A stretch of DNA of 64,000 bases, taken from the NCBI GenBank assembly GCA_044375975.1, contig JBILLQ010000006.1:1901-65900 (forward strand), written 5' to 3'. Both the position numbers and the translations under genes were made by a program. Source of the stretch: Prochlorococcaceae cyanobacterium. Lineage in GTDB: Bacteria > Cyanobacteriota > Cyanobacteriia > PCC-6307 > Cyanobiaceae. Under the pieces are notes generated by a model. The model was given only the letters and a program-made list of their open reading frames with translations. It was not told the origin of the DNA and did no database searches. Every line of letters starts with the position of its first letter. Position 1 is the first letter of the stretch. This document shows, piece after piece, positions 5,835 to 24,185 of this stretch.

Positions 5835-6040
5835 TCATGCCGCCACCCTCTCAGGGGCCAGGCTGGTTTCGCTGAACCCCCGCTGATCCAGGCCCAGCTT
5901 CAACTGGCGCAGATCCTGGCGGGTGAGTTCCCATGGCCGCCGCAGCACGGTGGAGAGGCCGGCAGGTCGTTGCCGGGGCTGCCGCCGGAACCTAGTGGTG
6001 GTGGTGAAGAAGAAGGCAGCGCGGCTGGCCAAGGGGGTGT
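5835..6040 (-). pseudogene. Frameshifted fragment of a second hsdR-like 3' region
   Basis: Encodes ..LSTVLRRPWELTRQDLRQLKLGLDQRGFSETSL.., against HsdR ..LTTVLQRPWELTRKDLRELRLALDQRGYNEATL.. (nt ~2490-2620). The upstream GNDLPA reads in a different frame. About 70 nt are near-identical at DNA level. Confidence 0.7.
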
Positions 6041-6122
6041 CGGCTCCGCATACATCGATAAACACTGAATAGCTCGATAACTTGGGCTAAGGTCTTTCTA
6101 GGTTGTCCGATGGTCGAGCTTC

Positions 6123-7310
6123 GTGGATCCCACTCGTAACCCGTTCGCCCCAGGAGCCGGAGCTCGTCCGCCCGAACTGGCTGGCCGCGAATCGATCATC
6201 GAGGCCGCCAACGTCGCCATGCAGCGCATCCAGCGCGGCCGGCAGGAGAAAAGCCAGATGCTGCTGGGTCTGCGGGGTGTGGGCAAAACCGTTCTGCTCA
6301 ACAGGCTCGCCCAGCTCGCCGAGGACATGGGATCCATCGTGGTACCTCTTGAGGCTCCTGAGGGTCAGCGGTTGGCCGCTTTTTTGGCGCCGGCCCTCAA
6401 GAGTGTGCTGCTGCGGCTGAGCCGTGTGGCCCAGGCCCGCGAACTCGCCCAACGCGGGCTGGGAGCCTTGCGCGGTTTTGCCAGTGCCTTCAAGGTGTCG
6501 ATCGGGGAGATCGAGCTGTCCATGTCTGCGGAACCGATCGCCGATAGCGGCAATCTGGAGATTGATCTGCCGGAGTTGATGGGAAGTGTGGGCAGGGCTG
6601 CGCAAGCAGCAAATACAAGTGTCGTCATCCTTCTCGACGAGGTGCAATATCTGTCAGAAGAAGATCTGCGCGGTCTGATCGTGGCCATGCACAGAATTGC
6701 TCAGCGAGGCTGGCCTGTGATCCTGTTCGGCGCCGGTCTGCCCCAGGTTGCAGCCTTGGCTGGGGAGGCTAAGTCGTATGCGGAGAGATTATTTGACTAT
6801 CCTGAGGTTGGTCCGCTGCCTTCCGCCGCAGCCCGTTCAGCTCTTCTCGATCCGATAGTGGAGGAAGGTGAATCCATCAGCGAGGATGCCCTAAATAGAA
6901 TCCTCTCAATCACCGAGGGATATCCTTATTTTCTGCAGGAGTGGGGCAAGCATTCCTGGAACACAGCGGGTAGATCCCCCATCACCGCAGACGATGTGGA
7001 GATGGCCAGCAGCCTGGCCACGGTGGCACTCGATCGAAGCTTTTTCCGCGTGCGGTTCGATCGGCTTACTCCTCGAGAACAGGACTATCTGAGAGCGATG
7101 GCCGCTCTGGGGCCTGGCCCCCATCGCTCTGGAGACATCGCCGATGCCCTGGGTATCAAAGTGCAACAGGCCGGACCGCTTCGTAACGGCCTGATCAAGA
7201 AGGGAATGATTTGGAGCCCAGCCCACGGGCAGACGGCTTTCACCGTGCCGATGTTCGACGCCTTCATGATCCGGGCCATCCCTGAATGGAAGCCGGAACG
7301 GTTGGTCTGA
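6123..7310 (+). CDS. AAA/ORC-like ATPase with C-terminal winged-helix-like region (orphan)
   Basis: 395 aa starting NPFAPGAGARPPELAGRE. Walker A is GLRGVGKT and Walker B is VVILLDEVQ. The C-terminus (..REQDYLRAMAALG..) looks wHTH-like. Confidence 0.8.
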   Translation: MDPTRNPFAPGAGARPPELAGRESIIEAANVAMQRIQRGRQEKSQMLLGLRGVGKTVLLNRLAQLAEDMGSIVVPLEAPEGQRLAAFLAPALKSVLLRLSRVAQARELAQRGLGALRGFASAFKVSIGEIELSMSAEPIADSGNLEIDLPELMGSVGRAAQAANTSVVILLDEVQYLSEEDLRGLIVAMHRIAQRGWPVILFGAGLPQVAALAGEAKSYAERLFDYPEVGPLPSAAARSALLDPIVEEGESISEDALNRILSITEGYPYFLQEWGKHSWNTAGRSPITADDVEMASSLATVALDRSFFRVRFDRLTPREQDYLRAMAALGPGPHRSGDIADALGIKVQQAGPLRNGLIKKGMIWSPAHGQTAFTVPMFDAFMIRAIPEWKPERLV

Positions 7311-7382: not shown

Positions 7383-7550
7383 TTACACCCACTGGTTGCA
7401 CAAAAGCTCTGCTTGGGCGAGCACGGTTTTCACCGCCTCTTCCTGAAGATAGGGTGGATAGCCATATTTGCTAAGGATGCGTTTCACCATCACACGGATC
7501 CGAGCGCGGGCGCTTTCGCGTAAGGTCCAGTCAATGGTTACCATTGGCAT
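7383..7550 (-). pseudogene. Isolated C-terminal fragment of a classical HsdR (DUF3387-like tail)
   Basis: A 55-aa ORF below the track cutoff: MPMVTIDWTLRESARARIRVMVKRILSKYGYPPYLQEEAVKTVLAQAELLCNQWV. It matches the conserved HsdR C-terminal DWT.RE..RA..RV.VKR.L.KYGYPP pattern. No helicase body lies upstream. Confidence 0.65.
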
Positions 7551-7598
7551 GGTGAGCGGGCTGTGGCTTGATGACAGGAGCCGTATGACGCGAGAGTG

Positions 7599-7991
7599 TC
7601 ACTTACGGATCTGTGGGGGCCTCGGGGGGAAGTTCCCCGGGGCTACCCGGCGGGATTGTGGCGGGTGTGCTTCATGGTGCTTCTCCTGGCCCAGTTTGGC
7701 CGGTAGGGAAGCTCTCATTAGGGCTGGATCAGTTTCCGGGGCCCACGTCAGCTGCGCTGAACCGTCAACAGCGTCAGCATCAGCAGGAGGACTGCCATGA
7801 TCCGCCTGTTGCTGGCGCAGCAACCGCAACACGGATTTTGGGTGGTACCCACTGATCTCCACCAGTTCATCCACCAGCTCTGTTTTTCCCTGGCAACTCA
7901 GTGCCTGGTAACGGCTACGGGCCGTATCCAGTAGGTGCCGACGCCGCTGGCGCGGCAGGCGCCTTTCACTGGAGCTGGACGCCGGAGACAA
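7599..7991 (-). pseudogene. Transposase N-terminal (HTH) remnant, rve-type IS
   Basis: ..RYQALSCQGKTELVDELVEISGYHPKSVLRLLRQ.. resembles the KxxKxxILDEfxxxTGYHRKyAiRLL motif of integrase-core transposases. The remainder is low complexity and no DDE domain follows. Confidence 0.45.
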
Positions 7992-8056
7992 AGTGACAAA
8001 ATAGCTGAGTCAACATTACGTCGCCAGTAATGAAGGCAGTGAGTCAACACGCCCGC

Positions 8057-8356
8057 TTATCTACGCGTCGTCGGATTCAAAAAGGGATCGCATCCCCGAC
8101 ATGGCTGCCAGCCGCCGCCATGAGATGGTGCACCGTATTCTCCGGTACCACCAGCCATCTCCTCCAGATCCTCATCGCTGAGCTCCAGGTTCTGTTTTGC
8201 CTGATACTTCAACCAATCAGCCTTGCTGACATCAAACCCTGCTTCTTTCGCCAGGGCTACAGCCGCATCTAGGTCGGCAGCAGCCTGAAGCTTGTCCCTG
8301 AGAGCAGCATCATCCTTGAGCTTGACAAGCAGTGCTGCGAGTTGCTCTTCTGACAT
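8057..8356 (-). CDS. procA: Nif11-leader (N11P) class II lanthipeptide precursor, prochlorosin-like; core TGEYGAPSHGGGWQPCRGCDPFLNPTTRR
   Basis: The 70-aa leader MSEEQLAALLVKLKDDAALRDKLQAAADLDAAVALAKEAGFDVSKADWLKYQAKQNLELSDEDLEEMAGG ends in a double-Gly site. The 29-aa core has 2 Cys and 4 Ser/Thr. The ATG at 8356 was chosen by conservation among the three copies. Confidence 0.9.
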   Translation of the reverse strand: MSEEQLAALLVKLKDDAALRDKLQAAADLDAAVALAKEAGFDVSKADWLKYQAKQNLELSDEDLEEMAGGTGEYGAPSHGGGWQPCRGCDPFLNPTTRR

Positions 8357-8520
8357 CGTCTGATACTGCAGGCACCCATCCATTCATAGCCCAGCCCCCC
8401 ACAACCAGTCAGCAGCCCTCAGCACAAACTCACAAAGCCACTCCCATAGCCAGTCATCCCCACTCCCACCCCTACAACGGGCACTACGGCAGGTTAGAGA
8501 GTGATGGACTCAGCGAATGG
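8357..8520 (-). promoter_or_regulatory. Conserved 5' region/promoter of procA copy 1
   Basis: Almost identical to 9432-9595 upstream of copy 2. A possible sigma70-like pair TGACTG-17nt-TATGAA lies about 35 nt before the ATG (weak match). Confidence 0.35.
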
Positions 8521-9155
8521 TGCAGTGCCTTTCTGCCGTTGGCACCCACTCTCAATGGGTGCTTCAAGTGCTATGAGCGGTTCTGCCAAAACTATCTCCA
8601 TCTCACTAAAAGTGCTCCCAAGTGCCATTTGGGTATTCGGATCCTTAAGCGATTGTTTGAGATGGGAGTACTCAGGAGTAAAAAGAAGATGCGAGTATCG
8701 CTAGAGCAACGGCAACTGCTCTTGCATTTAACTTGCGTCTCAATCAAATACCTGGCAACTGGGGGCAGATTGCGGTAAGATTTGAGGACACTAATGGCAT
8801 CCGCGATGGCAACTGAGCGCGAATTATTTGGTAGTTGCGTTGAGGCAATGCGTGTATCGATAGAGTTAAAGAATGTAGGTGGCTAGCTTTACTCCGGATA
8901 GAAATGGCTGAAATTTTTTTGGATGGGGAAGCGGCTCAGGGTTGGCGGCGAACAGGCAAAAAGGTGCCAAGTCGGATGTTGCATTTAGGTGCTTTGAGAG
9001 TGATTGAAGAATTAAAAGCTCCTGTGGTTGCAGGGGCTTGAAGGATTGGGCTACTAAGTTTAACGAGGGGCGATTAGCACCGGGCATGAGGGCCGGCACT
9101 GGGGCGTACATTAGTAGTGCTATTACACTCCCAGTTAGTTATTGTGGTCTTAGGG

Positions 9156-9431
9156 TTAGAATTCATAGGAGAATGTTTGGAAGGGGTTTCGTGTGCAGGG
9201 GACACTATCATCAGTAATGGTGCCACCAGTCACCCCCTCCAGCTCCTCATCGCTGAGCTGCATGGTTTGCGTTGCCTGATACTTCAACCAATCAGCCTTG
9301 CTGACATCAAACCCTGCCTCCTTCGCCAGGGCTACAGCCGCATCTAGGTCGGCAGCACCCTGAAGCTTGTCCCTGAGAGCAGCATCATCCTTGAGCTTGG
9401 CAAGCAGTGCTGCGAGTTGCTCTTCTGACAT
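9156..9431 (-). CDS. procA: Nif11-leader lanthipeptide precursor; core TITDDSVPCTRNPFQTFSYEF
   Basis: 70-aa leader ending ..LSDEELEGVTGG. The 21-aa core has 1 Cys and 6 Ser/Thr. Confidence 0.9.
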   Translation of the reverse strand: MSEEQLAALLAKLKDDAALRDKLQGAADLDAAVALAKEAGFDVSKADWLKYQATQTMQLSDEELEGVTGGTITDDSVPCTRNPFQTFSYEF

Positions 9432-9595
9432 CGTCTGATACAGCAGGAACTCCTCCATTCATAGCCCAGCCCCCCACAACCAGTCAGCAGCCCTCAGCAC
9501 AAAATCACAAAGCCACTCCCATAGCCAGTCATCCCCACTCCCACCCCTACAACGGGCACTACGGCAGGTTAGAGAGTGATGGACTCAGCGAATGG
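9432..9595 (-). promoter_or_regulatory. Conserved 5' region/promoter of procA copy 2
   Basis: See 8357-8520; there is one mismatch over the 141 nt aligned. Confidence 0.35.
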
Positions 9596-10250
9596 CATCC
9601 TTCCTTCCTGCAACTGGCATCCACTCTCAAAGGGTGCTCCAAGCACTATAAGCGATATTACCAAAACTATCGCCATCATACCAAAGGTGCTCACAAGTGC
9701 CATTGGGTCAGTCGGATGCTCAAGCGATTGCTTGAGAAGAGAGTAAGCAGGAGCAAAAGAAGACATGAGTGTCACCAATGCAACGGCAAATACCCTTTAT
9801 TTTTGATTGTCTTTTTAATCAGCTCCCCGATGAGTTGGGTTAGATTGCTGTCGGATTTAGAAGGGATCATAGCATCGGAGATGGTGACAGGGAGCGGCGT
9901 ATATGGTGGCTGTGTTGAGAGAATAAGTGTATCGCCGGAGTTAAAGAGAGGAGATGGCTGGCTTTGCTCCGGGCCCACGTCAGGGTAGAAATAGCTAAAT
10001 TTTTTGGGCGGGAAAAGCGGCTCAGGGTTGGCAGCGAACAGGCGAAATGGTGCCAGGTAGGATGTCGCATTTAGGTGCTTTGAGAGTGATTGAATAACTA
10101 AAAGCTCCTATAGTTGCAGGGGCTCGAAGGGTTAAGATGCCGAGGTTAGCCGTTATCGCAAGAGGCGATTAGCCCTGGGCACGAGAGCCGGCAGTGGGGT
10201 GTACATTAGCGGTATCATTACACCCCTAGCGAGTCGTAGTGATCCCAGGG

Positions 10251-10508
10251 TTAGAAGTCGTAAGAGATATCTAACTCCCAGTCATCAAAAAAGGAACAAC
10301 CACCAGTCACCCCCTCCAGCTCCTCATCGCTGAGCTCCAGGGTTTGCTTTGCCTGGTACTTCAACCAATCAGCCTTGCTGACATCAAACCCTGCCTCTTT
10401 TGCCAGGGCTACAGCCGCATCTAGGTCGGCAGCAGCCTGAAGCTTGTCCCTGAGAGCAGCATCATCCTTGAGCTTGGCAAGCAGGGCTGCGAGTTGCTCT
10501 TCTGACAT
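10251..10508 (-). CDS. procA: Nif11-leader lanthipeptide precursor; core CSFFDDWELDISYDF
   Basis: 70-aa leader ending ..LSDEELEGVTGG. The 15-aa acidic core has a single Cys at core position 1 and Ser at positions 2 and 12. Confidence 0.9.
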   Translation of the reverse strand: MSEEQLAALLAKLKDDAALRDKLQAAADLDAAVALAKEAGFDVSKADWLKYQAKQTLELSDEELEGVTGGCSFFDDWELDISYDF

Positions 10509-10810
10509 CGCCTGACGGACATACGGTGTTAATGCCACCACTTAGCTTACCCCCAAGAGCCTTCAGTAGTCCTCAGCACAACCTCACAAAGTCACTCCCA
10601 TAGCCACCACGAGCTCCAAAGACCTCCCAGCACCTTTCCAAAGCCTTCTTCGCCCGCCCCGCCGAGCAGGTCGCCACCCCGCTCATCAGCTGCCTGCCAC
10701 GGACACCGCCGCCAAAGCCACAACAACGAAACGCTGTTTGAGGAATCTGAGCGGTTTTATGTCTCTGTGAGTTATGGCGTCCACCATTGTGTGGATGTGG
10801 TGGATTGCCA

Positions 10811-13800
10811 TCAGCCTCTCACCTGTGGCCAGTCCAGCAATCCCGCGCTCAGCAGCGCTGGCAGCCAGCGCAGACCATCCACGGCCTCAAGCAAAGCAAG
10901 CGCCACACCCGCCTTACCGGTGTAGAGACCGGGCAGGTTGAGCGAGCCGTTGTCGACGCTGAAATATGTATAGCCACCGCTGGCTCGAGCCTGGTTAATC
11001 ACGGCGCTCTCGGCTGCAGCCACAGGCGCTTCCAGCTCCTGGCCGCTGACTTGGGCATCAATCCGCAGCAGGCTGGTGAGTCCAAGCACCCCGCAGCAGA
11101 GATGGGCAGGAGCCTCGCCGGCGCGGCTCGAGAGTTGCTCCAGGCTGGTCAGCGTGCTGGCCCTGGCACTCTGCTGCTCGGCCGCAGTTTGTTCATCCGC
11201 CAGAGCCGTTGCACAAAGAATCCAACGCGAGAGCAGGATTCCAGGTGCCCCATGGCACCAGCTGAGCATGAATTCACTGGGTTCACTGCTGGTCCTGAAA
11301 TCGGGCCAGTTGCCACGATCGCCATCAAAAACGGATCGCTCATAGGCCACCGCATGGCGTGCTCCCTTGGCAAAGCGTTCCTCACCGCAGGCCTGGGACA
11401 ACCGCGCCAAGGCAGCAGCCATGCCTGCAGCGCCGTGAGAGAAACCTGTGAGGGGCTGCTTCCCGAGGCTGGGCAATCCCGCAGGCCAGCCGCCGCTATC
11501 GAGCTGGAGCGACAGCAATCGGTCACCGCAGATGACCGCGAGCTCCTGGGCCCTTGGGGTGCCTGCAAGCAGCAGCGGGCCGATCAGTCCACAAACCCCG
11601 CCGATCACATCGATGCCCTCATCGGCCAGCAGCCGCTCAGGGCGGAGTTGATCGATCAGCAGTTCGGCCAGCGCCGACGCATCCTGCAGCCCTGAACGCT
11701 GTAGCAACTGCAGCGCCAACAAGATCCCCCCCGAGCCTGCAATCCCATAGGGCTGATCGCGAACCAGGCGAAACAACTGATCATTACTGTTGCGCTCGGC
11801 CAGCTCGGCCAGGCTTTCAAAGCAGCTCCAGGCCCGTTTGCGCCACAGCTCAGCCGTCTCACCGGCGCTGGCCAGGGCGAGGCGGGCAAACAGCAGGGCG
11901 GTGCCGCTGCCGCCCGAATAAAGCGAATTGCCGATTAAACCGAAGTGGAACGATTCACCATCGGCACCCAGGTCGATGCCCAACCATTCGGGACGGCCCT
12001 TGGTGTCGCTGATGGCGTCATCCCAGAGCTCCTGACCCAGCCGAAACGCCTCCTGGCGGTAGGCCTCTGGATCGACAACGTCGTTTGCATCGCCTGTGGC
12101 GCTGGTGCGCACAGCCCCTGCGGCAGCGACCGCAGTGGCGCTTGTCTTCAGCTGCCGTGCAGCGATCGCGCCCCGGATCAGCTGCAGCTGGAAATCGATC
12201 TCAACCTGATCCAGAGTCAGCAGGCGCCGGCACGCGGCAGTCAGACCACTGGCTTTCATGAACTCCTGGATCGGAGCCAGTCCCTCGGGCAGTGGGAGCT
12301 CTTCACCGTCAATCGAATGCTCAAAAAAGGGGATGTCGAGCCGCTCCATCTGCAGCAGTTCGGCCTTCAGCATCAGCCAACTGATCGGCTTCTCCCTGGC
12401 CAGCACAAAGCTGCGGCTCAGCTGCTCGAGCTTGAGCCCATGCACCACTGCGTTGCGCAGAGCGGCTGGCTCCAGCATCTGCCGCTGAATGATGAAATAC
12501 AGGCGTGTGGCCCGTGCCACCAGGCGCCGCGGTTGGCCGCGGAAGCCATCGAGAGCCTGCTGCAGCAAGGGCTTCAGGCGGATGGCTTCCTGCAGCTGGG
12601 CGGCAAAGCCACTGCACAGCTCATCAACAAAATCGTTGAGGCGCTGGGGGCTGCCCAGGCCCACCGGCAGGCTGGTGGGCAACTCACAAGGCTGCCTCAA
12701 ACGGCCGGCCATCATGCCGTCGCTGTTGAGGCCCAGCCAGCCGGGCATGGTGCGTTCTGGCGGTGGCGGCTGAATGCCGAGGGCACTGATGTCCAAGGCC
12801 AATTTGCGGCCAGCGCCGACCATTAGCCACTGGGGCAGCAGGCCTGAGCGCAGCACCGAACCCTGCATCGACGTCTGCAACGCCGAGATCGCATCGGGAT
12901 CATCGCCGTCGTCACTGATCAGGTTGCGCGGATCGGCCTCCAGCAGAGTTTCGGTATCGATCAGGATCAGCTGATCGCCGCTGGCGATCAGGTTTTCGTA
13001 GTGGCAATCGGTGCAGCCCAGCAGGTGCAGCACCGCCATGGTGCGGCCTGCATTGGTGTAAAAGCGGGCCAGCTCCTCATCGCTTGTACAGGGGCGGTGC
13101 TCCACCCACTCCATGAAGCCGTAGCCATCTTGGTTGATCACCATCAGTCTGCGCAAAGGCTCCAGATCTGAGGTGTCGTTGAGCGCTTGCAGATAGGTCT
13201 GGTAGGTCGCATCGACCTGCATGTCCTTGGGCTTGTAGACAACCCTGCGTGCGTCGTCTCCATTACCAAAGGTCAAAATCGCCACCGCGCGGCCGCCTCG
13301 GTGCGGATCGCTCAGGCCCAGCTGGATCGAGGTCGGGTAAGCATCGCCAGCGATGGCGAAGTTCAGCGCCAGCTCTTTTCGGCTGGCGGCCAGCCGGCGC
13401 AGCATCTCTTCGCTGGCGTCCAGCCAGAGTCGGCAAACCACCGCAAGCAGGCGGCCCAGCACGGGATAGTCCGCCAGCAGCAAGCTGTAGCCGCTGCGCA
13501 ACAGGTCGCCAATGAAGCCGTCATAGGCCTGATGAACCGGGCCGCCCGTACCGTCGCCTTGGGCCCCCAGGTGAGCCAGCAGCATCTGGCCTGGGGTGCG
13601 CCGCTGGTGGAACAGCTCCCAGAGGGCCTGATCGGCCGTTTCGCACAACCGCTCCAGCAGGGCTTCTCCCAGATCTAGCCAGGCCGCCTCGGTGAGCTGC
13701 AGCTGGGAATCCAGGTCGGCGCAGCTACATTTAAGTCGTTCCAGCGCCCAGCTAGCGGCTGGCCGCCAGGCATGGGCAAACGGTTTGCTGGCCCCGCGCT

Positions 13801-14143
13801 CAGCCAGCAGCTGGTGCTCTGCGCAGGCAGCGGCATCGCGGCCCGCCTGGCGCAGGGCCTCCAGCAGCGGCCACCAATCAGGATTCTGCGGTACGGCCAG
13901 ATCCGGTGGATCCAGAGCCCAGACAGCGCTGGTCTGATTCAGTCCGTTCCAGGCGAGCCGCTTGTCGAAATTGTCAGGCTGATCGGGGGCCACCACCTGA
14001 CGCCAGCTCTCAAGCGCCAGGTTGCTTTGTAGGTTGCCTGGTACGGCCATCGCCGCTTCAAGCCGCTGATGCAGGCTCCAGCCCTCGCGGCGCAGTTGCT
14101 TCTCGAGCGTGGTGTCCTGCTGCTCCGAAACCACGTCCTGCAC
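10811..14143 (-). CDS. lanM: Class II lanthipeptide synthetase LanM (ProcM-like, CCG zinc-site type)
   Basis: 1110 aa. The N-terminal dehydratase region contains [19 protein letters not shown]. The C-terminal LanC-like cyclase has [16 protein letters not shown] and HLCCGVLG. Confidence 0.95.
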
Positions 14144-14196
14144 TGGGTGAACCTTTGAATGACCAGGAGCCTAGGTTTTGTGTCTCACCAGGTTCG

Positions 14197-16368
14197 TCAC
14201 CCCTCCATGCGATTCAGGTAGCCACCCGGCTGGTGCTGAAGTTCGTCAAAGGTGCCCAGTTCACTGATCGTTCCGCCAGAGATCACAGCGATCTGGTCGG
14301 CAGACTCGATCGTTGAAAGTCGATGGGCAATGGCAACCCTGGTGATCGCCAGCGATGCGAGGGTGCGGGTCACCGCCGCCTGCGTTGGGGCATCCAGGGC
14401 ACTGGTGGCCTCATCGAGGAGGAGTATTTTGGGTTTGCCGATCAGAGCTCGGGCCAGCGATAGCCGCTGCCGCTGGCCCCCTGAAATGCCCATGGCCCCC
14501 TCACTGATCATGGTTTCGAGCTTCATCGGCATGCGCTCCACATCGTCTGCGATCGAGGCCTGATCCAGCGCCTGCCACACCTCCTCACGGCTGTAGGCCC
14601 TGCCGGCGCGCACCACGTCATAGATCGAACCCGTGGGCAGGGGCGAGTTTTGCAACACCACCCCGAGCTGGCGGCGGTACTGGCGCACAGCCAGGTTGCG
14701 CAGATCGATCCCGTCGATGTTGATCACGCCAGCTTCCGGTTCCATCAACCTCAGCAGACAACGCAGCAGGGTGGTCTTGCCACAGCCAGAAGCGCCCGTG
14801 ATCGCGGTATAGCACCCTTGCGGAATGGTGAGATTAATCTGCTTAAGCAGCGGCGCTGACGCATCTGCATAGCGCACCTGCAGGTTATTCATTTCAATCT
14901 GCCCCACGAGCTTATGCATCTGCGCGGCCGCCCCATGGCCGGCTTCAGGGGTGGCAAACATCACCACGCTGCTGCGCTCCCAAAGCACCATCAGCTTGGC
15001 CACCGAGTTTGCCACCTGCACCGTCAGGGATGACAACTGGCTGTTGAAGGACACATAGGCCGCCTGAAAGGCGACAAAGGCCGCCACAAGCTGGTTGGCG
15101 CCCATCATCGCAAGTCCACCTGAATCGGCGGCCTGGGTCTTGGCCTGATCCAGCATCCACACCAGAGCGATGAACACCACCACCTGGCCCAGGGGTGTGA
15201 GCACCCTGGCCAGCACTTCCAGGGCATTGTTAGCGGCCTGACCCCGAACCATCAACGCACCGAGACGCACCACATCGTTTATCCACTGTTCAAAGACAAA
15301 GGGCTCACTGCCGCTAACTCGGATCTGGGGCATGCCGACCACGGCTTGCAGTCCCATGTCATTGATCCGCGCTTGGCCCTCCTGAAGGGGTTGTTCGAGC
15401 TTGGCGGCCTGGAGCACCAGCAGCAGCATCACCACGGCACTCACCAGGCTGAATGCCGCTGCCACCAAGGCCAACTGGGTCTGGTAGATAAACATCAATG
15501 CCAGGTTGCTGAGTGAAAACAGCAGGCCCAGCCCGGCGTTGAGCAGGCCGCTACTCATTAGCTGCCGCATCTGACTGATTGAGCCCACCCGGGTCACCAG
15601 ATCGGCGGTGCCCAGGGTCTGGAAAAACGCGATGGGCAGCCGCAGCAGGTGGCTCCAGACCCCTGCCTCCAGGCGCAAGTTCACCAGGGATTCCATCCGC
15701 ACTGTGGCCAGGCTGCTGAACCCTTGGGACACCACCGTGCACAGGGCGATCAACATCACCACCAGCGAGGTTTCGACCACTAGCCGCAGCTCCCCCAGGG
15801 GCAACACCGTGCCCACCAGGAACGCGGTGAGCATGGGAATGCTGAGGTTGAAGATCGCCACCACCACAGCGCTGAAGACGACCGTGAGCAAGGGGGTGAT
15901 GTGGCTGCCCAGGGCAAAGCTCAACAAACTTCCGAGGGAAGCCAGGGGGACCGGCAGTGAGGCATAGAGCTCGAAGGCGTAGGGCTTCAGCGCCAACTCA
16001 GGCTGCAATGGCAGGCGCTGACCGCTGCGGGGGTCAAAGGTGACGGTTTGTCCAGCCAGGCGATGCACTGCCAAGGATCGGCCATCGTCTTCCGCAAAGA
16101 CAATCAACATCGCCCGGGTGGAACGGATTAGATCGGTTGGTGTTTTGACCTCCCGGTGGGTGATGTTGTTGATCTCAAGCAGATCGCTAAAGCTGCCTTC
16201 GGAGGGAACAATGGGGCGCCCATCCCCAAGCACCGCCATGGCGTAGCTCAAGGCCCTGCAGCTTGGATCACTCGAATTGCCGCTAAAGGTCAGCTCGTCC
16301 AGCCCCTGCTGCTGCACGGCGGCCATGCCCCGTAGGAGCGCCTGCTGACGGGTGTGCGCGAGGGTCAT
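14197..16368 (-). CDS. Bacteriocin-export ABC transporter permease/ATPase, no active peptidase domain (NHLM/N11P system second ABC)
   Basis: 723 aa with a non-catalytic N-terminal domain and a 6-TM region. Walker A is GASGCGKTT, signature ISGGQRQRL, Walker [17 protein letters not shown] overlap with the upstream ABC gene. Confidence 0.9.
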
Positions 16369-18554
16369 TGTCTGCGTCCTGCTGGGGCACTCACCAGCTC
16401 GGCCTCCAGCAGCAGCCGGTAGTGCCCGTTCGCTTCTGCCAGGTCCTTCGGGTGGCCCTGTTCAACCAATTGACCTTGTTCGAGCACTATGACCCAATCG
16501 CTAATCTGGGCTCCATACATCCGGTGAGCCACGGTAACCAAGGTGCGAGGTGTACGTTTGATTGCCGTTAGAATTTGCTGCTCTCTCCGTTCATCGAGGG
16601 CACTGGTGGCCTCGTCCATCAGCAGCACGGTGGGCTGGTGCAGCAGGGCCCGGGCAATCTCAACCCGCTGACGCTGACCGCCGCTGAGGTTGCCGCCGCC
16701 CTCGCCCAGTTGCATTGCCAGAGCACCGGCACCGCCCAAATCATCGAGTAGGCCCGCTTCAGCCAGAGCGGTCAGGGCGTCACTGGAGCGAAAGCGTGGA
16801 TCCCAGAGGCTGAGATTCTGCTCCAGCGTCGCTGGGAAAAGAAAAACATCCTGGGAGACAAGGGCAATCGAGGCGCGCAGGGTGGGATCGTCCCAATCGA
16901 GCCAATCGCGGCCGTCGTAAAGGATTCTCCCCTGACTGGGGCGATACAGGCCGGCGATAAGCCGCAGCAGGGTCGATTTACCCGAACCACTGCCCCCAAC
17001 GATCGCCAGATGTGCTCCTGCCTGAAGGCTCAGGTTCAGGCCGCCAAACATCAGCGGCGTGGTGGAACTGAACTGGTACCCCAGATCGCTGAGCTCCAGA
17101 GAACCGGCCAGCTGTCGCTGAGGGCGATCGTCTGCTGCCGCCATCTGAAAACTGCGAACCAGCGGATCAACTTCGGTGTCGATCACATCATTTACCCTAC
17201 CCATTTCGCCGTCGAGCTGCTGCAGCTGGGTGCTCAGCAAGTTGAGCTGCTGTAAGGGGGCCTGAATCATGCCCATCAGAAACTGAAATGCCATCAATTC
17301 ACCTAGGGTAATTTGCCCCATGATGATCATCACACCGCCAAGCAGGATCACACTGCAGCGCAGCAAAAATCCCGAGGTGGTTCCGATCAGACCCACCAGC
17401 GAGGTGGCCAAAGATTGTTTTTGCAGCTCAGCGAGTGCATCATTGAAACTTCCAGACCATTGCATGAATGATTCATTTTCCAGGCCACTGGCCTTGATGC
17501 TCTCAATGCACTGGATCACATACATGCCAATACCAGCAGCCTTTCCCTGCAGCACTGCTAGCTTGTAATTGTCGCCTTTTCTCACCTCGCGAATCCAAAG
17601 AGTAAGGGCGGAATTGCCGCCGGCAATCGCTACTGTGAGCAGGGATAGCCAAGGGGAGATCAGCAGACCAACCAGCAGGGCCAGCAGGCCTGAGCCGAGC
17701 GAGAGCACAAAGCCGATGACGCCATTGACGCTGAGTTGCACCAATGAGAAAGGCAGAATCAACCGCGTCGCCACCTCACCCCGCATGCGTTGCACGAAAT
17801 AGCGATACGGCAGGCTGAAGAGGGAGATATAGAGCAGGCTGCTGATGCGTTTAAGCAAGAGGAAGCCAAGGCTCCGCAGCAACAGCTTCTGAAGATTAAG
17901 CAGCGCGATTAGCACCACCACAGCGATTCCCGTGATCCAGATTGTTGGGATCGCGATGTTTTCCCGACCCTCTTGAAGAAAACTATCGATGAACTGGCTG
18001 GTGGCACCGGCGATGAACAGCTCGGGCAGGGCCCCTGCCAGCGACACTAGGGCGAGCCAAGGGATCAGGCTGAGATAGGGCTTGAGCAGGCTGGGCACCC
18101 AGTGATAAAGCCCGGGCTCGCTGCCTCCACGCCTGAATGCCGAGCCTGGGTGTAGCTCCAGTACGACGCCGGTGAAGCTGGCCTGGAACTCCTCCCAGTC
18201 GACACGGCGGCGCCCACTGGCGGGATCACTCAGAAACGCTTGGCCGTGCTCGAAGCCTTCGAGCACGAGAAAGTGATTAAAATTCCAGAACAGGATGCAG
18301 GGGTAATGACCAGTCTTGAGCAGCGCATCGGCGCTGCGGCGAAAGGCCTTCACCTCGAGTCCGTAGCTCTGGGCAGCCCGCTTCAGTTGTATTGCGGTGA
18401 CCCCATCGCGGCTGATACCACATCGTTCACGCAACTCGGCTAGAGGCAGAATCTTGCCCAAATAAGCCATCACGATCTTGAGGCTGGCGGCTCCGCATTC
18501 CACCGACTCATACTGCAGCACTGTGGAGGTCACCACCCGAGACTTCCGATTCAT
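16365..18554 (-). CDS. Bifunctional C39 peptidase / ABC transporter (double-glycine leader cleavage and export)
   Basis: Starts MNRKSRVVTSTVLQYESVECGAASL, with catalytic Cys20 at 18495-18497. NHFLVLEGF supplies the His motif. The ABC part has GGSGSGKST, LSGGQRQR and [15 protein letters not shown] overlap with the hlyD stop. The 779-aa track ORF is an upstream extension. Confidence 0.9.
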   Translation of the reverse strand: MNRKSRVVTSTVLQYESVECGAASLKIVMAYLGKILPLAELRERCGISRDGVTAIQLKRAAQSYGLEVKAFRRSADALLKTGHYPCILFWNFNHFLVLEGFEHGQAFLSDPASGRRRVDWEEFQASFTGVVLELHPGSAFRRGGSEPGLYHWVPSLLKPYLSLIPWLALVSLAGALPELFIAGATSQFIDSFLQEGRENIAIPTIWITGIAVVVLIALLNLQKLLLRSLGFLLLKRISSLLYISLFSLPYRYFVQRMRGEVATRLILPFSLVQLSVNGVIGFVLSLGSGLLALLVGLLISPWLSLLTVAIAGGNSALTLWIREVRKGDNYKLAVLQGKAAGIGMYVIQCIESIKASGLENESFMQWSGSFNDALAELQKQSLATSLVGLIGTTSGFLLRCSVILLGGVMIIMGQITLGELMAFQFLMGMIQAPLQQLNLLSTQLQQLDGEMGRVNDVIDTEVDPLVRSFQMAAADDRPQRQLAGSLELSDLGYQFSSTTPLMFGGLNLSLQAGAHLAIVGGSGSGKSTLLRLIAGLYRPSQGRILYDGRDWLDWDDPTLRASIALVSQDVFLFPATLEQNLSLWDPRFRSSDALTALAEAGLLDDLGGAGALAMQLGEGGGNLSGGQRQRVEIARALLHQPTVLLMDEATSALDERREQQILTAIKRTPRTLVTVAHRMYGAQISDWVIVLEQGQLVEQGHPKDLAEANGHYRLLLEAELVSAPAGRRQ

Positions 18555-20125
18555 TTGTTGTCGACCACCAGGCCAAGAGCACGCCTGAGTGCAGGCATCA
18601 CGAATTCGACCGGCCGCCGATACGTAGTGGTGATCTGCACGTCGGCCAGGGTGGCCAGGCGCACAGGGTGGGGCGGCAAACGTCCCGAGCTCCAGCGGTA
18701 GCAATCGTAGCTACTGCCACTTCTGCACCGGTCCGGAGTGGTTTGCTCCAGCTGAACCCGCGCCAGATACGGAGTGAGAGTGATCTGTTGGATCGGATTT
18801 ACCAGGGCACGACTCCCCACCGCTCCCAGTAGCCCATCACCCTGAAGGGGCAGCTTGTTGACCTCAATGACACGCCCTGGAATGCCACCGTATTGGGCCC
18901 GGGAGATCCCCTTCGGCGTCACCAGCACCTTCATACCTTCACTCACCTGCTGGGCGGCTGAAGGGTCTAGAAAAACGGGAATTAAACTGGGCAGAGATGG
19001 TGACATCTTCGTGAATATGAGCAGCTCATCACCTTGTTTGACAAAAGTACCATTCACGAAATTGCGGGCCAGGATATAGAAGCCATTCACGGGCGCAAAA
19101 ATGGTTGTGGCGCTGAGGTAACTGACTAGTTGATTTTCGAGCTTGTTAAGGTTGTCAATGCTTGAAACGATGGCTTGCTTCGACTGCTCAAGCTGCTCAT
19201 CGCGACTGATCGAGGTGTTGACCTGAGCGGAGTCGGCGCTGAGCAGCTGCCCCTCAAGTGCATTGATGCGCGATTGCTCTTCCAGCACGGTGGTGCCAGG
19301 TAAATACCCCTGCTTCCAAAGGGTTAGATAGCGTCGATAAAGATCACGACGTTGCTTGAGTTCGGCAACAAGAGTTTGCCGCTGGTTGCTTTGTAAGCCT
19401 CCCAACTGGCTAAGGGTGCCCGCTCGAGCAAGTCTTTCGGAGCGCTGCTGGCGATGCAGCTTTTCGGCTGGCAGTATCCCCAGTAAGGCTGCATTTAACT
19501 CCAGATGGGCGGCTTCATTCTCTATGCGGGCTATAACGGTGCCACTGGGATAACTCAATGTGATCGGTCTGCTCTGGCGTTCAACAGCTTTGGAGGTTGC
19601 CAGGTTTGCCGGTAAGAGAAACGTCTGGCCCTGTACGGATGCCAGTGCCGCTTGCACCAGTTCTGCCAACTTGGCCGCATCATTCACATTGCTGGTGAAG
19701 ACGGTGGCTTGGCTCCGCCAGAACTGACCCAACATCTCATTGCGTTGACGCTGCAGCGCCGGCAGGTTGTTGGCACCAAACCCGCTCACCTGATAGCGAA
19801 GGATCCCCGAGCTGGCCGCATTCAGGCTTTCCAAACCGCCAGGCGGCACGATCGCGCCGGTGCCGTTCACCTGGACCGGAACCCGAGCCAGGACCGACCA
19901 AAGCACCCCGAGCATGGCGATGGCGGCCGCAGCAATCGCCGTGAGCCGAACTGGCAGCGGCAAAAAGGCGACCGGTTTGGTGGCATCAGCTCCAGCCTTG
20001 AGGCGCTCCAGCGCCACCTGTTCAAAGATCTCGAAGCGTTCGGCCGCCCGTTTCGGGGAACCGCCGCATTCGACTGGGGCAGAGCCCTGTTCAGGATTGA
20101 ATCGATCGTCCGGGGGGGAGGGCAT
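18551..20125 (-). CDS. HlyD-family membrane-fusion/secretion protein of the bacteriocin exporter
   Basis: 524 aa with a single N-terminal TM (LTAIAAAAIAMLGVLWSVLA). It has long coiled-coil segments and a C-terminal beta-barrel-like region, as in type I secretion adaptors. Confidence 0.85.
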   Translation of the reverse strand: MPSPPDDRFNPEQGSAPVECGGSPKRAAERFEIFEQVALERLKAGADATKPVAFLPLPVRLTAIAAAAIAMLGVLWSVLARVPVQVNGTGAIVPPGGLESLNAASSGILRYQVSGFGANNLPALQRQRNEMLGQFWRSQATVFTSNVNDAAKLAELVQAALASVQGQTFLLPANLATSKAVERQSRPITLSYPSGTVIARIENEAAHLELNAALLGILPAEKLHRQQRSERLARAGTLSQLGGLQSNQRQTLVAELKQRRDLYRRYLTLWKQGYLPGTTVLEEQSRINALEGQLLSADSAQVNTSISRDEQLEQSKQAIVSSIDNLNKLENQLVSYLSATTIFAPVNGFYILARNFVNGTFVKQGDELLIFTKMSPSLPSLIPVFLDPSAAQQVSEGMKVLVTPKGISRAQYGGIPGRVIEVNKLPLQGDGLLGAVGSRALVNPIQQITLTPYLARVQLEQTTPDRCRSGSSYDCYRWSSGRLPPHPVRLATLADVQITTTYRRPVEFVMPALRRALGLVVDNK

Positions 20126-20137
20126 GCTATGGCGTCC

Positions 20138-21799
20138 TCAGTGTTTGGCCAGGGTGTTGACCCGCTGCTCCAGCAGGGGCTTGGTGCCAACGGGCCAGCG
20201 GGCCGAGCTTCGATATAGCCTCGCCACCGCACTGTTGTAAGTGCGCTCAGCGCTCGCGTAATCGTTGGCCGCACCGATGGCCTGGTTCAACGCCACCACG
20301 AGTGAGGATATATCGCTCACGCCGACCAGATACCTCTCTTGTACGGCGGCGGCGGCGACCTGGGCAGCCTGGAGCTGGGCCCGGCTGCTCTGCAGCGACA
20401 GCAGGCTGGTCAGATAGGTGGCATAGTAATTTTCAACTTCCCGGGTAACGCTAAGACGAGTTGTCGCTGCTTGATTCAGGGCCTGACGGGCGGCGGCCTT
20501 CTGTACCTCGGCTTGGGAGGCATTGATGCCACCATCGAAAAGCTGCCAGGTGAAGCCCACGCCATAGCCCCCGTTCCACTTAAGGGTGTGGTTGTTGATC
20601 TGCGTGCTTGTGCTGCCGTCAAGACTTCTTCCTGTGCTCTGGTCGGTTGTGTTGCTGTTGGCGTAGCCGCCGCTGGCCCCAAGGCTGAAGCTGGGCCAGT
20701 AGGTGTTGAACAGAGCGGTGGCCGTCCAGCTGGCACTGGCGGCAGCGGCCTGGCTCGCCTGAATTTCCTCCCGCAGCCTCAAGGCTTGCTCGATCGTTGA
20801 CTGGAGGGGCTGATCCCAATGGCCCAACGTGATCGGTTTTTTGGTGGGTAACGCAAGTGTGCCTGGGGGCAACGCCATGGTCTGAGCCAGTAGGGAGGAA
20901 GCATCGATCAGCTGCCGGTAGGCATTGATCAGCGTGCTCAAGGTGGAGTACTGCTGGGTGCGGATTTGTTCAACATCGGCAATGCTCACCAGGCCATCAT
21001 TGAACTGAGCCTCCGTTATTCGTACCTGGCGGCGAATTACATTCAAGATCTCGCTATAGGATTCGATCAGCTGTCTCTGTTCCTTTAGGCTGAAGTAGGC
21101 CTCCTGAATCTCAAGGACCAGGTTTCGGGCGCTCACGTCAAACAGAAGCTGCTGTCTCTTTAGACTTTCGCTGGCTGCATTGATGCTTGCACCCCGGCTG
21201 GAATTAAAAAAAGTCCAGCCAATCGTGATGCCCAGATTAACCGCTGTGGCGTTGGAGGCGCTGGTTGAACTGGTGCTTATCCGACCATCGTTGGCGGCCG
21301 AAATGGTGTTGGTGATATTGAAATTCTGACCGGGCACGTAGGAGCTGGATGCCACGCTCAATGTCGGATACCACTGGCGCCTCACGGCGATCAGATTCCA
21401 TTGCTGGCCCTGGATCTCGGCATAGGCTGCTGCCAGAAGTGGATTATGGAGCAAGCCCGCCTCCAGGGCTTCATCCAGGCTGGTGGTGCGGGAGCGCGCA
21501 TTAAGCTGAAGCTGCAACTCCTGAAGCTGCGCTTGCAGTTGATCAGCCAGAGGATTGGGCCGAACCTGGGGGGCCGCGATGCCGTCAATGCGATAGCCAG
21601 CCTTGGCTATGCCGAGTGGATATTGGGAAACCAGGCAGGCCATCAACACAATGATCCTTGAGAGCTTCCATGCAGAGCTGCCATAGGGTCTGGACTGGTA
21701 GCACCTCCTGGAACAATCGGCCAATGCAATGGATTTCTTCAAGCTCACGCCGTAGCCAGGCAACAGGTGGGATGTATTGCCCCTCTGCTCAACGGTCAT
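20138..21799 (-). CDS. TolC-family outer-membrane efflux protein
   Basis: 553-aa ORF with a two-fold repeated helix/strand pattern (..LEAGLLHNPLLAAAYAEI.. and ..LNQAATTRLSVTREV..). It ends 12 nt before the hlyD start. The true start is uncertain (possibly an internal Met). Confidence 0.8.
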   Translation of the reverse strand: MTVEQRGNTSHLLPGYGVSLKKSIALADCSRRCYQSRPYGSSAWKLSRIIVLMACLVSQYPLGIAKAGYRIDGIAAPQVRPNPLADQLQAQLQELQLQLNARSRTTSLDEALEAGLLHNPLLAAAYAEIQGQQWNLIAVRRQWYPTLSVASSSYVPGQNFNITNTISAANDGRISTSSTSASNATAVNLGITIGWTFFNSSRGASINAASESLKRQQLLFDVSARNLVLEIQEAYFSLKEQRQLIESYSEILNVIRRQVRITEAQFNDGLVSIADVEQIRTQQYSTLSTLINAYRQLIDASSLLAQTMALPPGTLALPTKKPITLGHWDQPLQSTIEQALRLREEIQASQAAAASASWTATALFNTYWPSFSLGASGGYANSNTTDQSTGRSLDGSTSTQINNHTLKWNGGYGVGFTWQLFDGGINASQAEVQKAAARQALNQAATTRLSVTREVENYYATYLTSLLSLQSSRAQLQAAQVAAAAVQERYLVGVSDISSLVVALNQAIGAANDYASAERTYNSAVARLYRSSARWPVGTKPLLEQRVNTLAKH

Positions 21800-21915
21800 G
21801 TTTCGCTGGCATCCAGGATGCAGAACTTGACCGCAATGGATCGATCCATGGAAGGGCTACCGCCATCATTTTCGGTAGCGTTGATCAAGGGTCCTTGATG
21901 CTATCAACATCATGA

Positions 21916-22332
21916 TCAAGTGGCAGTGTTCAGCTGCACACGATCAGCAGCGCCACGATCGATCTCAAGGAGACGATCCGCGAGGGCGCCAAGCTCAAGC
22001 GGCGCCACCATCCTCCCCGTACACCACGAGAACGGCTGCTGGAGCTCAGCCAGCTCAGGGATGCCCACCGGATCGCTGCTGCGCTGGAGGCACTGCAGCT
22101 CAGCAGCGATCCGGTGGCCCTGCTGGAAACAAGGAGCAGCGCTAGGCGGCTCATGGCGCTGGCTCCGGGCAGGTACCACGAGGGTCAGCTGCGCTCGATG
22201 GAGCGGCGCGTCAAGGAATGGCGAACAGCCCGAGCAGAGCGGCTGGTGGGGGTGATGCGATCAGCCGGAAAGGGTAAGCAGACAGAGGAAACGGCCAATC
22301 CTGTCGCGACACCAATTGGAAGCCCCACTTAA
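21916..22332 (+). pseudogene. Transposase/integrase N-terminal remnant (no start codon, no catalytic domain)
   Basis: The open frame reads ..IDLKETIREGAKLKRRHHPPRTPRERLLELSQLRD..PGRYHEGQLRSMERRVKEWRTARAERLV... It resembles the ..GQLRTLQRRVKxWR.. motif I recall from rve-type IS transposases. Confidence 0.4.
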
Positions 22333-22399
22333 TCATGCAAAGCGGTGGCTTGGTTTTCGATGATGCTTGACGAGAGCTTGAGCTGGTCCCAACAGCTTG

Positions 22400-22810
22400 T
22401 TAGGAGCGATGCACGTGAACTTGCTTCCAGGCCCCCTCTAGTTTTTGCCAGATGCGGGTTTCGCAGCAACTGCTAGTGATCGCTTCATCGTCCAGTCGGC
22501 GTTGGGTAAGTCGTGTATAGCTCAGAACAACGGCAGCATCGCTAAGCCAGCGCAGATGGGGCCTGGCCATGCTCACGTTTACAGAGCAGCTTTTACCATT
22601 GGTGTTAATATTAGCATTGCTGTCTTCGTCGGAAAAATAAAAACGATGAAAGGCTAATCCCTCCGCCAGGATGCCGTTGGTTTCGGCTTCGAAGCAGCTC
22701 AGGGATGGATCGCAGTAGCTCGCATAGCTGTTCCAGTCCCCGCTTGCCACGCTTTCCAGCATGGCTTGATTGAGGGCAAGAATCTCTTGATCGCTGGCAG
22801 AGTGGTTCAA
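22400..22810 (-). CDS. NTF2-fold protein, SnoaL/DUF4440 or CaMKII-association-domain like
   Basis: 136 aa; ..ILALNQAMLESVASGDWNSYASYCDPSLSCFE.. and ..CCETRIWQKLEGAWKQVHVHRS are typical of this fold. 4-nt overlap with the mtnBC stop. Confidence 0.7.
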   Translation of the reverse strand: MNHSASDQEILALNQAMLESVASGDWNSYASYCDPSLSCFEAETNGILAEGLAFHRFYFSDEDSNANINTNGKSCSVNVSMARPHLRWLSDAAVVLSYTRLTQRRLDDEAITSSCCETRIWQKLEGAWKQVHVHRS

Positions 22811-24159: not shown

Positions 24160-24185
24160 AGGAATCAATGCTGGATTTGGCCTGA

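Follow-up and report, generated by a model that had tools for sequence, protein, structure and literature searches.

A prochlorosin-type lanthipeptide gene cluster with a dedicated exporter and three precursor genes in a lake picocyanobacterium

A 64,000-nucleotide stretch of a Prochlorococcaceae assembly (contig JBILLQ010000006.1 of GCA_044375975.1; hereafter the window, numbered from its first letter) carries eight consecutive minus-strand open reading frames (ORFs) at positions 8057-21799: tolC, hlyD, ABC1, ABC2, lanM, and the precursor genes A1, A2 and A3. Judged by its sequence, this locus, which comes from a lake picocyanobacterium, is a ProcM-type lanthipeptide gene cluster that has its own exporter and three precursor genes, and it is an ordinary member of its kind. 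We consider it very likely that the locus encodes a prochlorosin-type class II system in which an operon of large genes and separately transcribed precursor units together provide for peptide modification and export, the precursors forming an array of cassettes. The gene content, the intact catalytic motifs, the match between leaders and peptidase, the linkage of exporter to lanM and the anatomy of the cassettes were all observed in the DNA itself, and the family assignments of the proteins lie far beyond chance level. The gene order had been claimed in an initial annotation of this DNA, and both the ORF list and the family matches bear it out.

The synthetase gene lanM (10811-14143, minus strand) has a GTG start and encodes 1110 residues. 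The protein scored 677.9 bits against TIGR03897 (NCBIfam cutoff, 304). Pfam placed a DUF4135 domain (PF13575, E = 4e-99) at residues 226-608 and a LANC_like domain (PF05147, E = 4e-36) at residues 738-1093, which is the class II layout of an N-terminal dehydratase and a C-terminal LanC-like cyclase in a single polypeptide. LanM aligned with the solved synthetase LicM2 (6st5, E = 9e-53) and with CylM (E = 1e-17). Its kinase and elimination motifs, namely SDPHRGG (278-284), VYKPKD (302-307), DCHYEN (379-384), LIDTE (394-398) and an Arg/Thr stretch (539-549), are identical in the aligned LicM2. The catalytic residues are intact: D279/H281, K304, D379-H381-N384, D396, R540/T546, H903, C963 and C1016-C1017. 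We take the DxH motif, the Lys of VYKPK, the DxHxxN motif, the Mg-binding Asp and the Arg/Thr pair to have the kinase and elimination roles of their counterparts in CylM and LctM.

The zinc ligands of the cyclase are C963 (within SWCHGAPG) and C1016-C1017 (within LCCG), the CCG motif being encoded at 11090-11101. The CCG column reads CHG in LicM2, and the motif is common to the window LanM, ProcM of Prochlorococcus MIT 0707 and 12 other relatives, and thus to every relative checked. CCG has served as the criterion for ProcM-like enzymes (PMC10783134), and by it the window enzyme has the predicted three-Cys zinc site of the ProcM subgroup. The initial annotation had called LanM a ProcM-like synthetase; its complete set of catalytic motifs and the CCG zinc motif agree. 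A LanM encoded at 10001-13165 of locus L019, from the alphaproteobacterium Roseovarius lutimaris DSM 28463, is 42% identical to the window enzyme and also has CCG; the ProcM-type zinc site therefore reaches beyond the cyanobacteria.

This single lanM gene lies beside three precursor genes with a common leader and differing cores, all on the minus strand: A1 (10251-10508; leader 10299-10508, core CSFFDDWELDISYDF at 10254-10298), A2 (9156-9431; leader 9222-9431, core TITDDSVPCTRNPFQTFSYEF at 9159-9221) and A3 (8057-8356; leader 8147-8356, core TGEYGAPSHGGGWQPCRGCDPFLNPTTRR at 8060-8146). Their leader_Nif11 scores of 75.9, 71.1 and 72.7 bits, respectively, all exceed the cutoff of 32.3 bits, with the match reaching the model end at GG (TIGR03798), and PF07862 was matched as well. 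A tblastn search of the 64-kb window with the leader found exactly three copies and no further Nif11 leaders. The cores after GG measure 15 residues in A1, 21 in A2 and 29 in A3, the lengths given in the initial annotation. Core 1 contains one Cys and two Ser, core 2 one Cys and six Ser/Thr, and core 3 two Cys and four Ser/Thr. Identity at the DNA level is 93-96% among the leaders and 35-46% among the cores, and the similarity stops precisely where the GG codons end. The leaders finish in G-rich codons (GGAGGGGGTGACTGGTGG) at all three leader/core junctions (10299-10337, 9222-9260 and 8147-8185); G-quadruplexes have been predicted at the leader/core boundary in a preprint on marine strains (bioRxiv 10.1101/2020.03.09.984088).

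ABC1 (16365-18554, minus strand) is predicted to be a peptidase-containing ABC exporter of the PCAT/AMS type. It starts with the ATG at 18554; a longer ORF with a TTG start (16365-18704) was rejected as an artefact of the ORF definition. The protein comprises Peptidase_C39 (PF03412, E = 2e-31; encoded at approximately 18141-18554), ABC_membrane and ABC_tran domains, and its best family is TIGR03796 (660.6 bits; cutoff, 853.3). The closest structure to the C39 domain is LahT150 (6mpz, E = 7.5e-40), followed by PCAT1. The domain keeps Gln14, Cys20, His94 and Asp110, residue n aligning with LahT residue n+7, so that Cys20/His94/Asp110 correspond by alignment to the LahT triad Cys27/His101/Asp117. 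The respective codons lie at 18495-18497, 18273-18275 and 18225-18227, the first being TGC when counted from the ATG at 18554, as had been claimed for Cys20. LahT150 cuts off ProcA leaders, whose positions -4, -7 and -12 sit in hydrophobic pockets (PMC6363468). At -4 the three window leaders have V, V and M, and at -7 and -12 all of them have L. The proposal that the double-Gly leaders fit the C39 peptidase is thus supported from both sides, by the LahT-like Gln/Cys/His/Asp set and by the leader residues.

The remaining exporter genes are also on the minus strand. The putative outer-membrane channel TolC (20138-21799) has two Pfam OEP domains (E = 1e-49) and matched TIGR01844 at E = 1.5e-30, under the model cutoff. 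Its start is ambiguous: public gene calls give 553 and 501 residues, and homologues show a conserved signal-peptide region approximately 45-66 residues into the long ORF. HlyD (18551-20125), the putative membrane-fusion protein or periplasmic adaptor, best matched TIGR03794 (NHLM_micro_HlyD, E = 1.2e-27) at 96.9 bits (cutoff, 156.2) over its C-terminal half, residues 263-515 only; it also matched TIGR01843. ABC2 (14197-16368), a second ABC half-transporter, has ABC_membrane and ABC_tran domains without a recognisable peptidase domain, and its best family is TIGR03797 (542.5 bits; cutoff, 709.4). The Walker A, Walker B, signature and H-loop motifs are canonical in both ABC1 and ABC2. The N-terminal domain of ABC2, approximately 135 residues, is conserved among homologues. 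Aligned with the C39 profile of ABC1 using hhalign, it gave a weak local match of 17 columns in the Asp region (E = 0.043, probability 1%), and a single-sequence AlphaFold2 model of it was unusable (pLDDT 42). All component classes of a type I secretion system (ABC transporter, membrane-fusion protein and outer-membrane protein) are thus encoded within one gene string.

The initial annotation had assigned these genes to the known N11P/NHLM export set. That assignment holds insofar as TIGR03794, TIGR03796 and TIGR03797 are the best matches, and fails at the level of the curated cutoffs, which none of the three scores reaches. Because the scores are below cutoff, yet the models match best and the domain layout is the same, the exporter proteins are diverged relatives of that set rather than members at equivalog level, probably with the same function.

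Related loci with the exporter-plus-lanM module number at least seven and include some from freshwater Cyanobium and from marine Synechococcus. The five-gene order is kept, with exporter and lanM collinear, in L001, a sister genome, and in the marine Synechococcus locus L017; in L005, L008, L016, L018 and L020 the exporter adjoins lanM on the opposite strand. All four exporter genes are present in these seven loci except in L016, whose contig stops within ABC1. The proteins of L001 are 97-99% identical to their window counterparts. This conservation bears on the suggestion that TolC, HlyD, ABC1 and ABC2 are a general type I secretion system for other substrates that lies beside lanM by chance. 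Scores below the cutoffs of NHLM-specific models would fit such a system, as would an orientation relative to lanM that differs between genomes. We nevertheless regard it as very improbable: seven loci spanning 43-99% protein identity all retain the link between exporter and lanM, the C39 domain most resembles that of LahT, which processes Nif11 leaders, the leaders have the GG site and the hydrophobic residues at -4, -7 and -12, and the run of stop/start overlaps continues to a gap of only 53 nt before lanM.

A dedicated exporter is also consistent with the packing of the genes. The reverse complements of 18551-18554 and 16365-16368 both read ATGA, the hlyD stop overlapping the ABC1 start and the ABC1 stop overlapping the ABC2 start; both overlaps had been noted in the initial annotation. 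The tolC-hlyD and ABC2-lanM gaps are 12 and 53 nt. Because these large genes either overlap by 4 nt or have such short gaps between them, tolC-hlyD-ABC1-ABC2-lanM is a probable operon. Farther downstream, the gaps measure 302 nt (lanM-A1), 819 nt (A1-A2) and 799 nt (A2-A3). The claim of an operon with short gaps therefore stands for tolC through lanM, and not for the precursors, which are widely spaced, have a promoter-like element of their own and, in the case of A1 and A2, are followed by hairpins.

The precursors are tandem repeats, 1075 and 1077 nt apart. A full cassette consists, in order, of a promoter-like element, the near-identical leader, the variable core, a terminator hairpin and a convergent, dead fragment of a TnpA_REP gene; A3, the last cassette, is without hairpin and TnpA_REP fragment. 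The promoter-like element is conserved 40-96 nt 5' of each precursor ATG. It comprises an upstream element followed by CTGAC(T/G), 17-18 nt and TATGAA, TATAAT or TATAAA approximately 35 nt before the ATG. For A2 (9457-9520, minus strand), these correspond to a -35 of CTGACT, an 18-nt spacer and a -10 of TATGAA(T). A3 has the same conserved element (8382-8445, minus strand), and that of A1 (10539-10599, minus strand) has weaker -35/-10 matches. The equivalent -10 reads TATAAT in L011 and TATAAA in L014. It is plausible that this conserved motif is a promoter.

Terminator-like hairpins with T-runs follow A1 (10104-10123, minus strand; approximately 130 nt past the stop, -10.9 kcal/mol) and A2 (9018-9037, minus strand; identified by cross-locus alignment and folding). 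Such hairpins lie approximately 100-130 nt past the stop and fold at -18 to -20 kcal/mol in relatives, as expected of a strong terminator. Five other lake genomes, with LanM proteins approximately 65% to 97% identical to that of the window, conserve the spacers of approximately 800 nt at 66-85% across 500-600 nt, and L001, L004, L007, L011 and L014 all keep the promoter-like element and the hairpin as well as the TnpA_REP remnant. Since each precursor has a promoter-like element and a terminator-like hairpin follows A1 and A2, and these are kept across genomes, the precursors are probably separate transcription units outside the operon.

The strand opposite the precursors carries, in each full cassette, the remnant of a TnpA_REP (RAYT, Y1 transposase) gene. 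Remnant 1 (9545-9922, plus strand) is the frameshifted C-terminal half of the gene, convergent with A1; remnant 2 (8470-8831, plus strand) is likewise C-terminal and frameshifted, and is convergent with A2. A multi-genome alignment showed that the opposite-strand spacer ORF is conserved in all copies. In L014 it continues into RYIHANP..AG and matches NF047646 (REP-associated tyrosine transposase, E = 2.9e-5). A profile search with the spacer ORF retrieved Y1_Tnp (PF01797) proteins of 205-241 residues, and proteins of Prochlorococcus MIT9313, MIT9303, MIT0702 and MIT1323. By tblastn, both window copies span only residues 119-241 of the 241-residue PF01797 proteins, in two frames. Neither contains the catalytic HUH and Tyr core (PF01797), and no intact TnpA_REP copy was found in the window. 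The spacer copies are thus, by their reading frames, transposase gene remnants rather than transposases. The spacer ORFs of the window themselves had no Pfam or NCBIfam match, their transposase identity coming from the cross-genome alignment and the profile search. A small protein on the sense strand of the spacers was considered and rejected, as its frames differ between copies and amino-acid identity, judged by eye, is below DNA identity. The spacers contain no RNA known to Rfam.

Based on these features, we propose the following mechanism. The genes tolC-hlyD-ABC1-ABC2-lanM would be co-transcribed and the three precursor genes transcribed separately. LanM would bind the common leader, one enzyme serving all three cores, as its conserved residues and the literature on ProcM and SyncM suggest. 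It would phosphorylate Ser and Thr residues of the core and then eliminate the phosphate, generating Dha and Dhb, to which the tri-cysteine zinc site would add Cys thiols to form lanthionine or methyllanthionine rings. As the homologous LahT, PCAT1 and type I secretion systems suggest, the C39 domain of ABC1 would then cut after Gly-Gly, and the core would cross both membranes by way of ABC1 and ABC2 acting as a pair, HlyD as the adaptor and TolC as the channel. The array itself may diversify in two ways: through indels where leader and core meet, and through recombination in the conserved flanks that exchanges whole cassettes.

Several observations count against this account. On the exporter side, HlyD has no Pfam match and its N-terminal half is without any match, the N-terminal domain of ABC2 matches nothing in the PDB or Pfam, and HlyD, ABC1 and ABC2 all score under the curated NCBIfam cutoffs even though those models match them best. 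A scan of 7500-22900 for consensus promoters and terminators found no more sites than in shuffled sequence and did not call the cassette signals. The window hairpins are each weakened by one mismatch, with energies of -9 to -11 kcal/mol and z-scores of -0.9 and -1.9. The conserved 3' flank of A3 is lost, and unrelated sequence with a group II intron fragment adjoins the gene. Finally, near relatives of core 1 are without Cys, and lanthionine may not be essential for the peptide family to which core 1 belongs.

The last point concerns the nature of the cores, which the initial annotation had described as unrelated in sequence. For cores 1 and 2 this is not the case. Similarity between A1 and A2 returns over the final four codons (SY(D/E)F) and the stop, and runs on into the conserved 3' flank. 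By these criteria, cores 1 and 2 are related, belonging to an acidic family with a Thr start and a Y(D/E)F end that was found repeatedly. In a survey of the 107 distinct cores of the hit list, a sample biased towards the query, 14 ended in [DE]F. Thr stood first in 12 of these 14 versus 16 of the 93 others, and their mean net charge was -2.9 versus +0.2. Cys was absent from 5 of the 14 versus 7 of the 93 (Fisher p = 0.009). In the sister genome L001, the Cys-less cores TFFDDWELDISYDF and TVIVEAWMHWHSYDF lie directly downstream of a lanM whose product is 97% identical to that of the window. The first of these occupies the A1 position, and window A1 differs from it by a 3-nt indel and a substitution immediately past GG.

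The main rival explanation, which we hold to be possible though improbable, is that the acidic cores with a Thr start and a Y(D/E)F end (A1 and perhaps A2) function independently of lanthionine. Such cores would be exported linear or only dehydrated, using the same leader and C39 exporter, and LanM would be dispensable or would act only as a dehydratase; an N-terminal 2-oxobutyryl group derived from Dhb1 exemplifies the kind of product expected. The Cys-less cores beside the nearly identical lanM of L001 favour this explanation, as do a Cys-less core at array position 2 of contig L025, which encodes an identical LanM (see below), the over-representation of Cys-less members among the [DE]F-ending cores, the Thr start and negative charge of that group, and the origin of the A1 Cys in the indel and substitution right past GG. 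Several points argue against it: all three window cores have Cys plus Ser/Thr, Cys9 and Ser6 of the A2 family are kept in three diverged homologues, and the survey that yielded the statistics is biased. Moreover, Cys-less ProcA/SyncA cores are known in marine strains (PMC10783134) and could be decaying copies.

In the prochlorosin-type reading, all three cores are substrates for ring formation. SyncM can close rings in either direction, with sizes reaching 14 residues (PMC8524650), so a ring between Cys1 and Dha12 in core 1 is chemically plausible. The three diverged homologues of core 2 keep Cys9 and Ser6, and diverged orthologues of core 3 keep Thr1, Ser8, Cys16, Cys19 and Thr27; because these Cys and Ser/Thr residues are kept, cores 2 and 3 appear to be under selection. 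The A3 protein was seen on 31 contigs, and P0296 is a diverged orthologue of it.

The L025 contig is near-clonal with the window, with no differences for approximately 7.5 kb, from ABC1 through A1 and the A1 spacer. Its second cassette differs: the leader is approximately 95% identical to that of the window, and the core is the unalignable, Cys-less TVLFEDYRVSLTWVNKGPEDYEF. The 3' flank of this cassette is conserved for approximately 150 nt, through the terminator hairpin, and diverged beyond. Comparing these two sequences suggests that recombination in the conserved flanks replaced the cassette as a whole. A broader proposal combines this with the core survey: the acidic cores with a Thr start and a Y(D/E)F end (A1, A2 and many lake relatives) would be a distinct, conserved class of exported, lanthionine-independent Nif11 peptides, and whole cassettes would be exchanged between near-clonal freshwater picocyanobacteria. 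The suggestion that this class functions without need of lanthionine follows from a third or more of its distinct sampled members being Cys-less. We consider the combined proposal rather unlikely. If it is true, Y(D/E)F peptides might act as linear or dehydro-peptide signals, the array would be a recombination-driven peptide repertoire, and the linkage of procA to TnpA_REP would extend beyond the sea.

The end of the array invites another explanation, that the locus is a decaying remnant on an island rich in mobile elements and that peptide production has ended. The spacers contain dead transposase fragments, an unrelated ORF adjoins the array end, as does a group II intron fragment, fragments of type I restriction genes lie close by, and the terminator stems contain a mismatch. 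All five large ORFs are intact, however, with every catalytic motif present. The L001 proteins are 97-99% identical, at least four independent samples contributed the 8 contigs that carry the exact LanM sequence, and the A3 protein occurs on 31 contigs. Dead TnpA_REP fragments are, moreover, normal in active marine prochlorosin loci. We therefore find decay hardly credible and retain the reading of a functional prochlorosin-type cluster.

The sequence around the locus was annotated as follows. Directly after A3, in place of the conserved 3' flank of A1 and A2, lies a minus-strand ORF of 130 residues (7599-7991) whose N-terminus resembles, by eye, the helix-turn-helix of a transposase or integrase; it had no Pfam or NCBIfam match. 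Just past the last precursor, 7576-7651 (plus strand) matches group II intron domain V/VI (RF00029, 48.3 bits, gathering threshold 40, E = 2e-6). This match is probably a fragment, because no reverse-transcriptase ORF is present nearby. Two minus-strand ORFs between the restriction-modification system and the lanthipeptide array look like debris of restriction genes: one of 55 residues at 7383-7550, which matches the C-terminus of the R subunit of a type I restriction system (T1RH-like_C, E = 9e-20), and a second, short one at 5835-6065, similar to the tail of the intact HsdR. The restriction-modification system is an intact type I pair on the minus strand (179-5474) comprising HsdM (179-1681, N6_Mtase) and HsdR (2106-5474, NF008521, 1528 bits). 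A P-loop ATPase of 395 residues (AAA_16/AAA_22; 6123-7310, plus strand) is encoded between the restriction-modification genes and the array.

On the other side, a protein resembling the CaMKII association domain and SnoaL (22400-22810, minus strand, E = 3e-27) is encoded 600 nt upstream of tolC, without evident link to the cluster; the start of its ORF overlaps the stop of an upstream ORF of 483 residues (22807-24258). No family match was obtained for the ORFs lying between tolC and the gene upstream of it. Farther away, a TnpB-type gene (30926-32176, minus strand; HTH_OrfB_IS605, OrfB_IS605 and Cas12f1-like TNB domains) was detected with no adjacent Y1 transposase. The region 37000-43000 has a GC content of approximately 70%, well over the rest of the window, and includes an ORF for a family-2 glycosyltransferase/cellulose-synthase-like protein (40020-42644). 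An island of low GC content (approximately 50500-54500; 42-47% versus approximately 60-70% elsewhere) overlaps an ORF of 1286 residues with a C-terminal CHAT domain (49602-53462, minus strand). The upstream neighbours of the CHAT ORF encode a ShlB/FhaC-type protein (47828-49486) and a CHASE2-adenylate/guanylate cyclase (45543-48077). No inverted or direct repeats bounding the whole locus, as a composite transposon would have, were found.

The window is identical to the metagenome contig Ga0453728_0000143 (ENA/JGI; 79,396 bp), and public databases already contain all eight proteins. Where a public source names them, the names are correct: LanM, TolC, ABC subfamily B protein and nif11-like-leader peptide. 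The closest genome, a metagenome-assembled genome (MAG) of Prochlorococcaceae from Lake Mendota, has a LanM 97% identical to that of the window and an unchanged gene order. Relatives of LanM at 62-75% identity are encoded in Cyanobium and Synechococcus lake MAGs, and identity to the enzymes of marine Synechococcus and to ProcM of Prochlorococcus MIT 0707 is 43-46%. A full-text search of the collected papers gave no match to the three core strings or to the one relative included. The novelty implied by the initial annotation was nonetheless overstated: the module occurs in at least seven related loci, has been described in the literature (PMC2887384, PMC10783134), and its proteins are public, eight out of eight. 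The most useful additions made here are the extension of the procA-TnpA_REP architecture to fresh water, a Cys-poor core family, and a cassette swap in a near-clonal relative. The locus adds three uncharacterised cores and one ProcM-like enzyme, approximately 45% identical to ProcM, to a substrate-tolerant family used in peptide engineering. It also places the full prochlorosin architecture, with its exporter, tri-Cys synthetase, transcription signals for each cassette and link to dead TnpA_REP genes, in lake picocyanobacteria, where dense time-series metagenomes could let cassette turnover be watched directly.

Among known systems, the locus most invites comparison with the prochlorosins (ProcM/ProcA) of Prochlorococcus MIT9313 and other LLIV members. 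The two share a class II LanM with the CCG tri-cysteine motif, Nif11-type GG leaders, a single synthetase for several precursors, a conserved leader beside a variable core, procA genes that face TnpA_REP fragments, and a conserved intergenic hairpin. In contrast to the marine hosts, the host of the window belongs to a freshwater Cyanobium-like lineage; its LanM is only approximately 45% identical to the ProcM of MIT 0707, and it has only three precursors in 64 kb, all adjacent to lanM. A further difference concerns the exporter, which is complete and collinear with lanM in the window, whereas the 23-kb MIT 0707 locus (L021) has only a tail fragment of ABC2 beside procM. That fragment, at 13236-13472, matches ABC2 residues 643-721 and suggests that the MIT 0707 lineage lost or moved an exporter that once adjoined procM. 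Prochlorosin-type matches have been reported from a freshwater lake at the level of BAGEL4 calls (PMC8221699).

SyncM/SyncA of marine Synechococcus MITS9509 and the related biosynthetic gene clusters (PMC10783134) likewise have a ProcM-like CCG enzyme, and genes for TolC, HlyD, an ABC transporter and a C39 protease were reported near lanM in the same marine study. The marine loci L017, L018 and L020 contain the same five genes as the window. They differ from it in sequence, with identities of 43-46% for LanM and 25-45% for the exporter proteins, and in their cores. No tailoring genes (e.g. YcaO or SDR) were found among the flanking ORFs of the window locus that were tested.

The export models TIGR03794, TIGR03796 and TIGR03797 were linked to NHLP/N11P precursors by Haft et al. 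in 2010 (PMC2887384). Their cassette and the window share an HlyD-like protein, a peptidase-containing ABC protein and a peptidase-less one, adjoining Nif11-derived precursors. Unlike that cassette, the window adds tolC to the probable operon, making four components, and all three of its scores are below the model cutoffs. The C39 signature, with its Gln/Cys/His/Asp set, is conserved in LahT150 and PCAT1 (6mpz, 4ry2), and LahT150 cleaves ProcM-modified ProcA peptides. However, LahT and PCAT1 are homodimeric exporters of Gram-positive bacteria, whereas ABC1 of the window is paired with a peptidase-less ABC protein, an adaptor and an outer-membrane channel.

Finally, the array resembles the procA-tnpA_REP loci described by Laurenceau et al. 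(bioRxiv 10.1101/2020.03.09.984088) in its convergent C-terminal fragments and its regular spacing, and the window hairpin matches their marine consensus, AAGCCC..GCAGGGGCTTTTT. Those authors called the association of procA with TnpA_REP unique to marine picocyanobacteria, whereas the cases described here are from lake MAGs. They also favoured indels in the cores over swapping, whereas the difference between L025 and the window looks like the replacement of a whole cassette.

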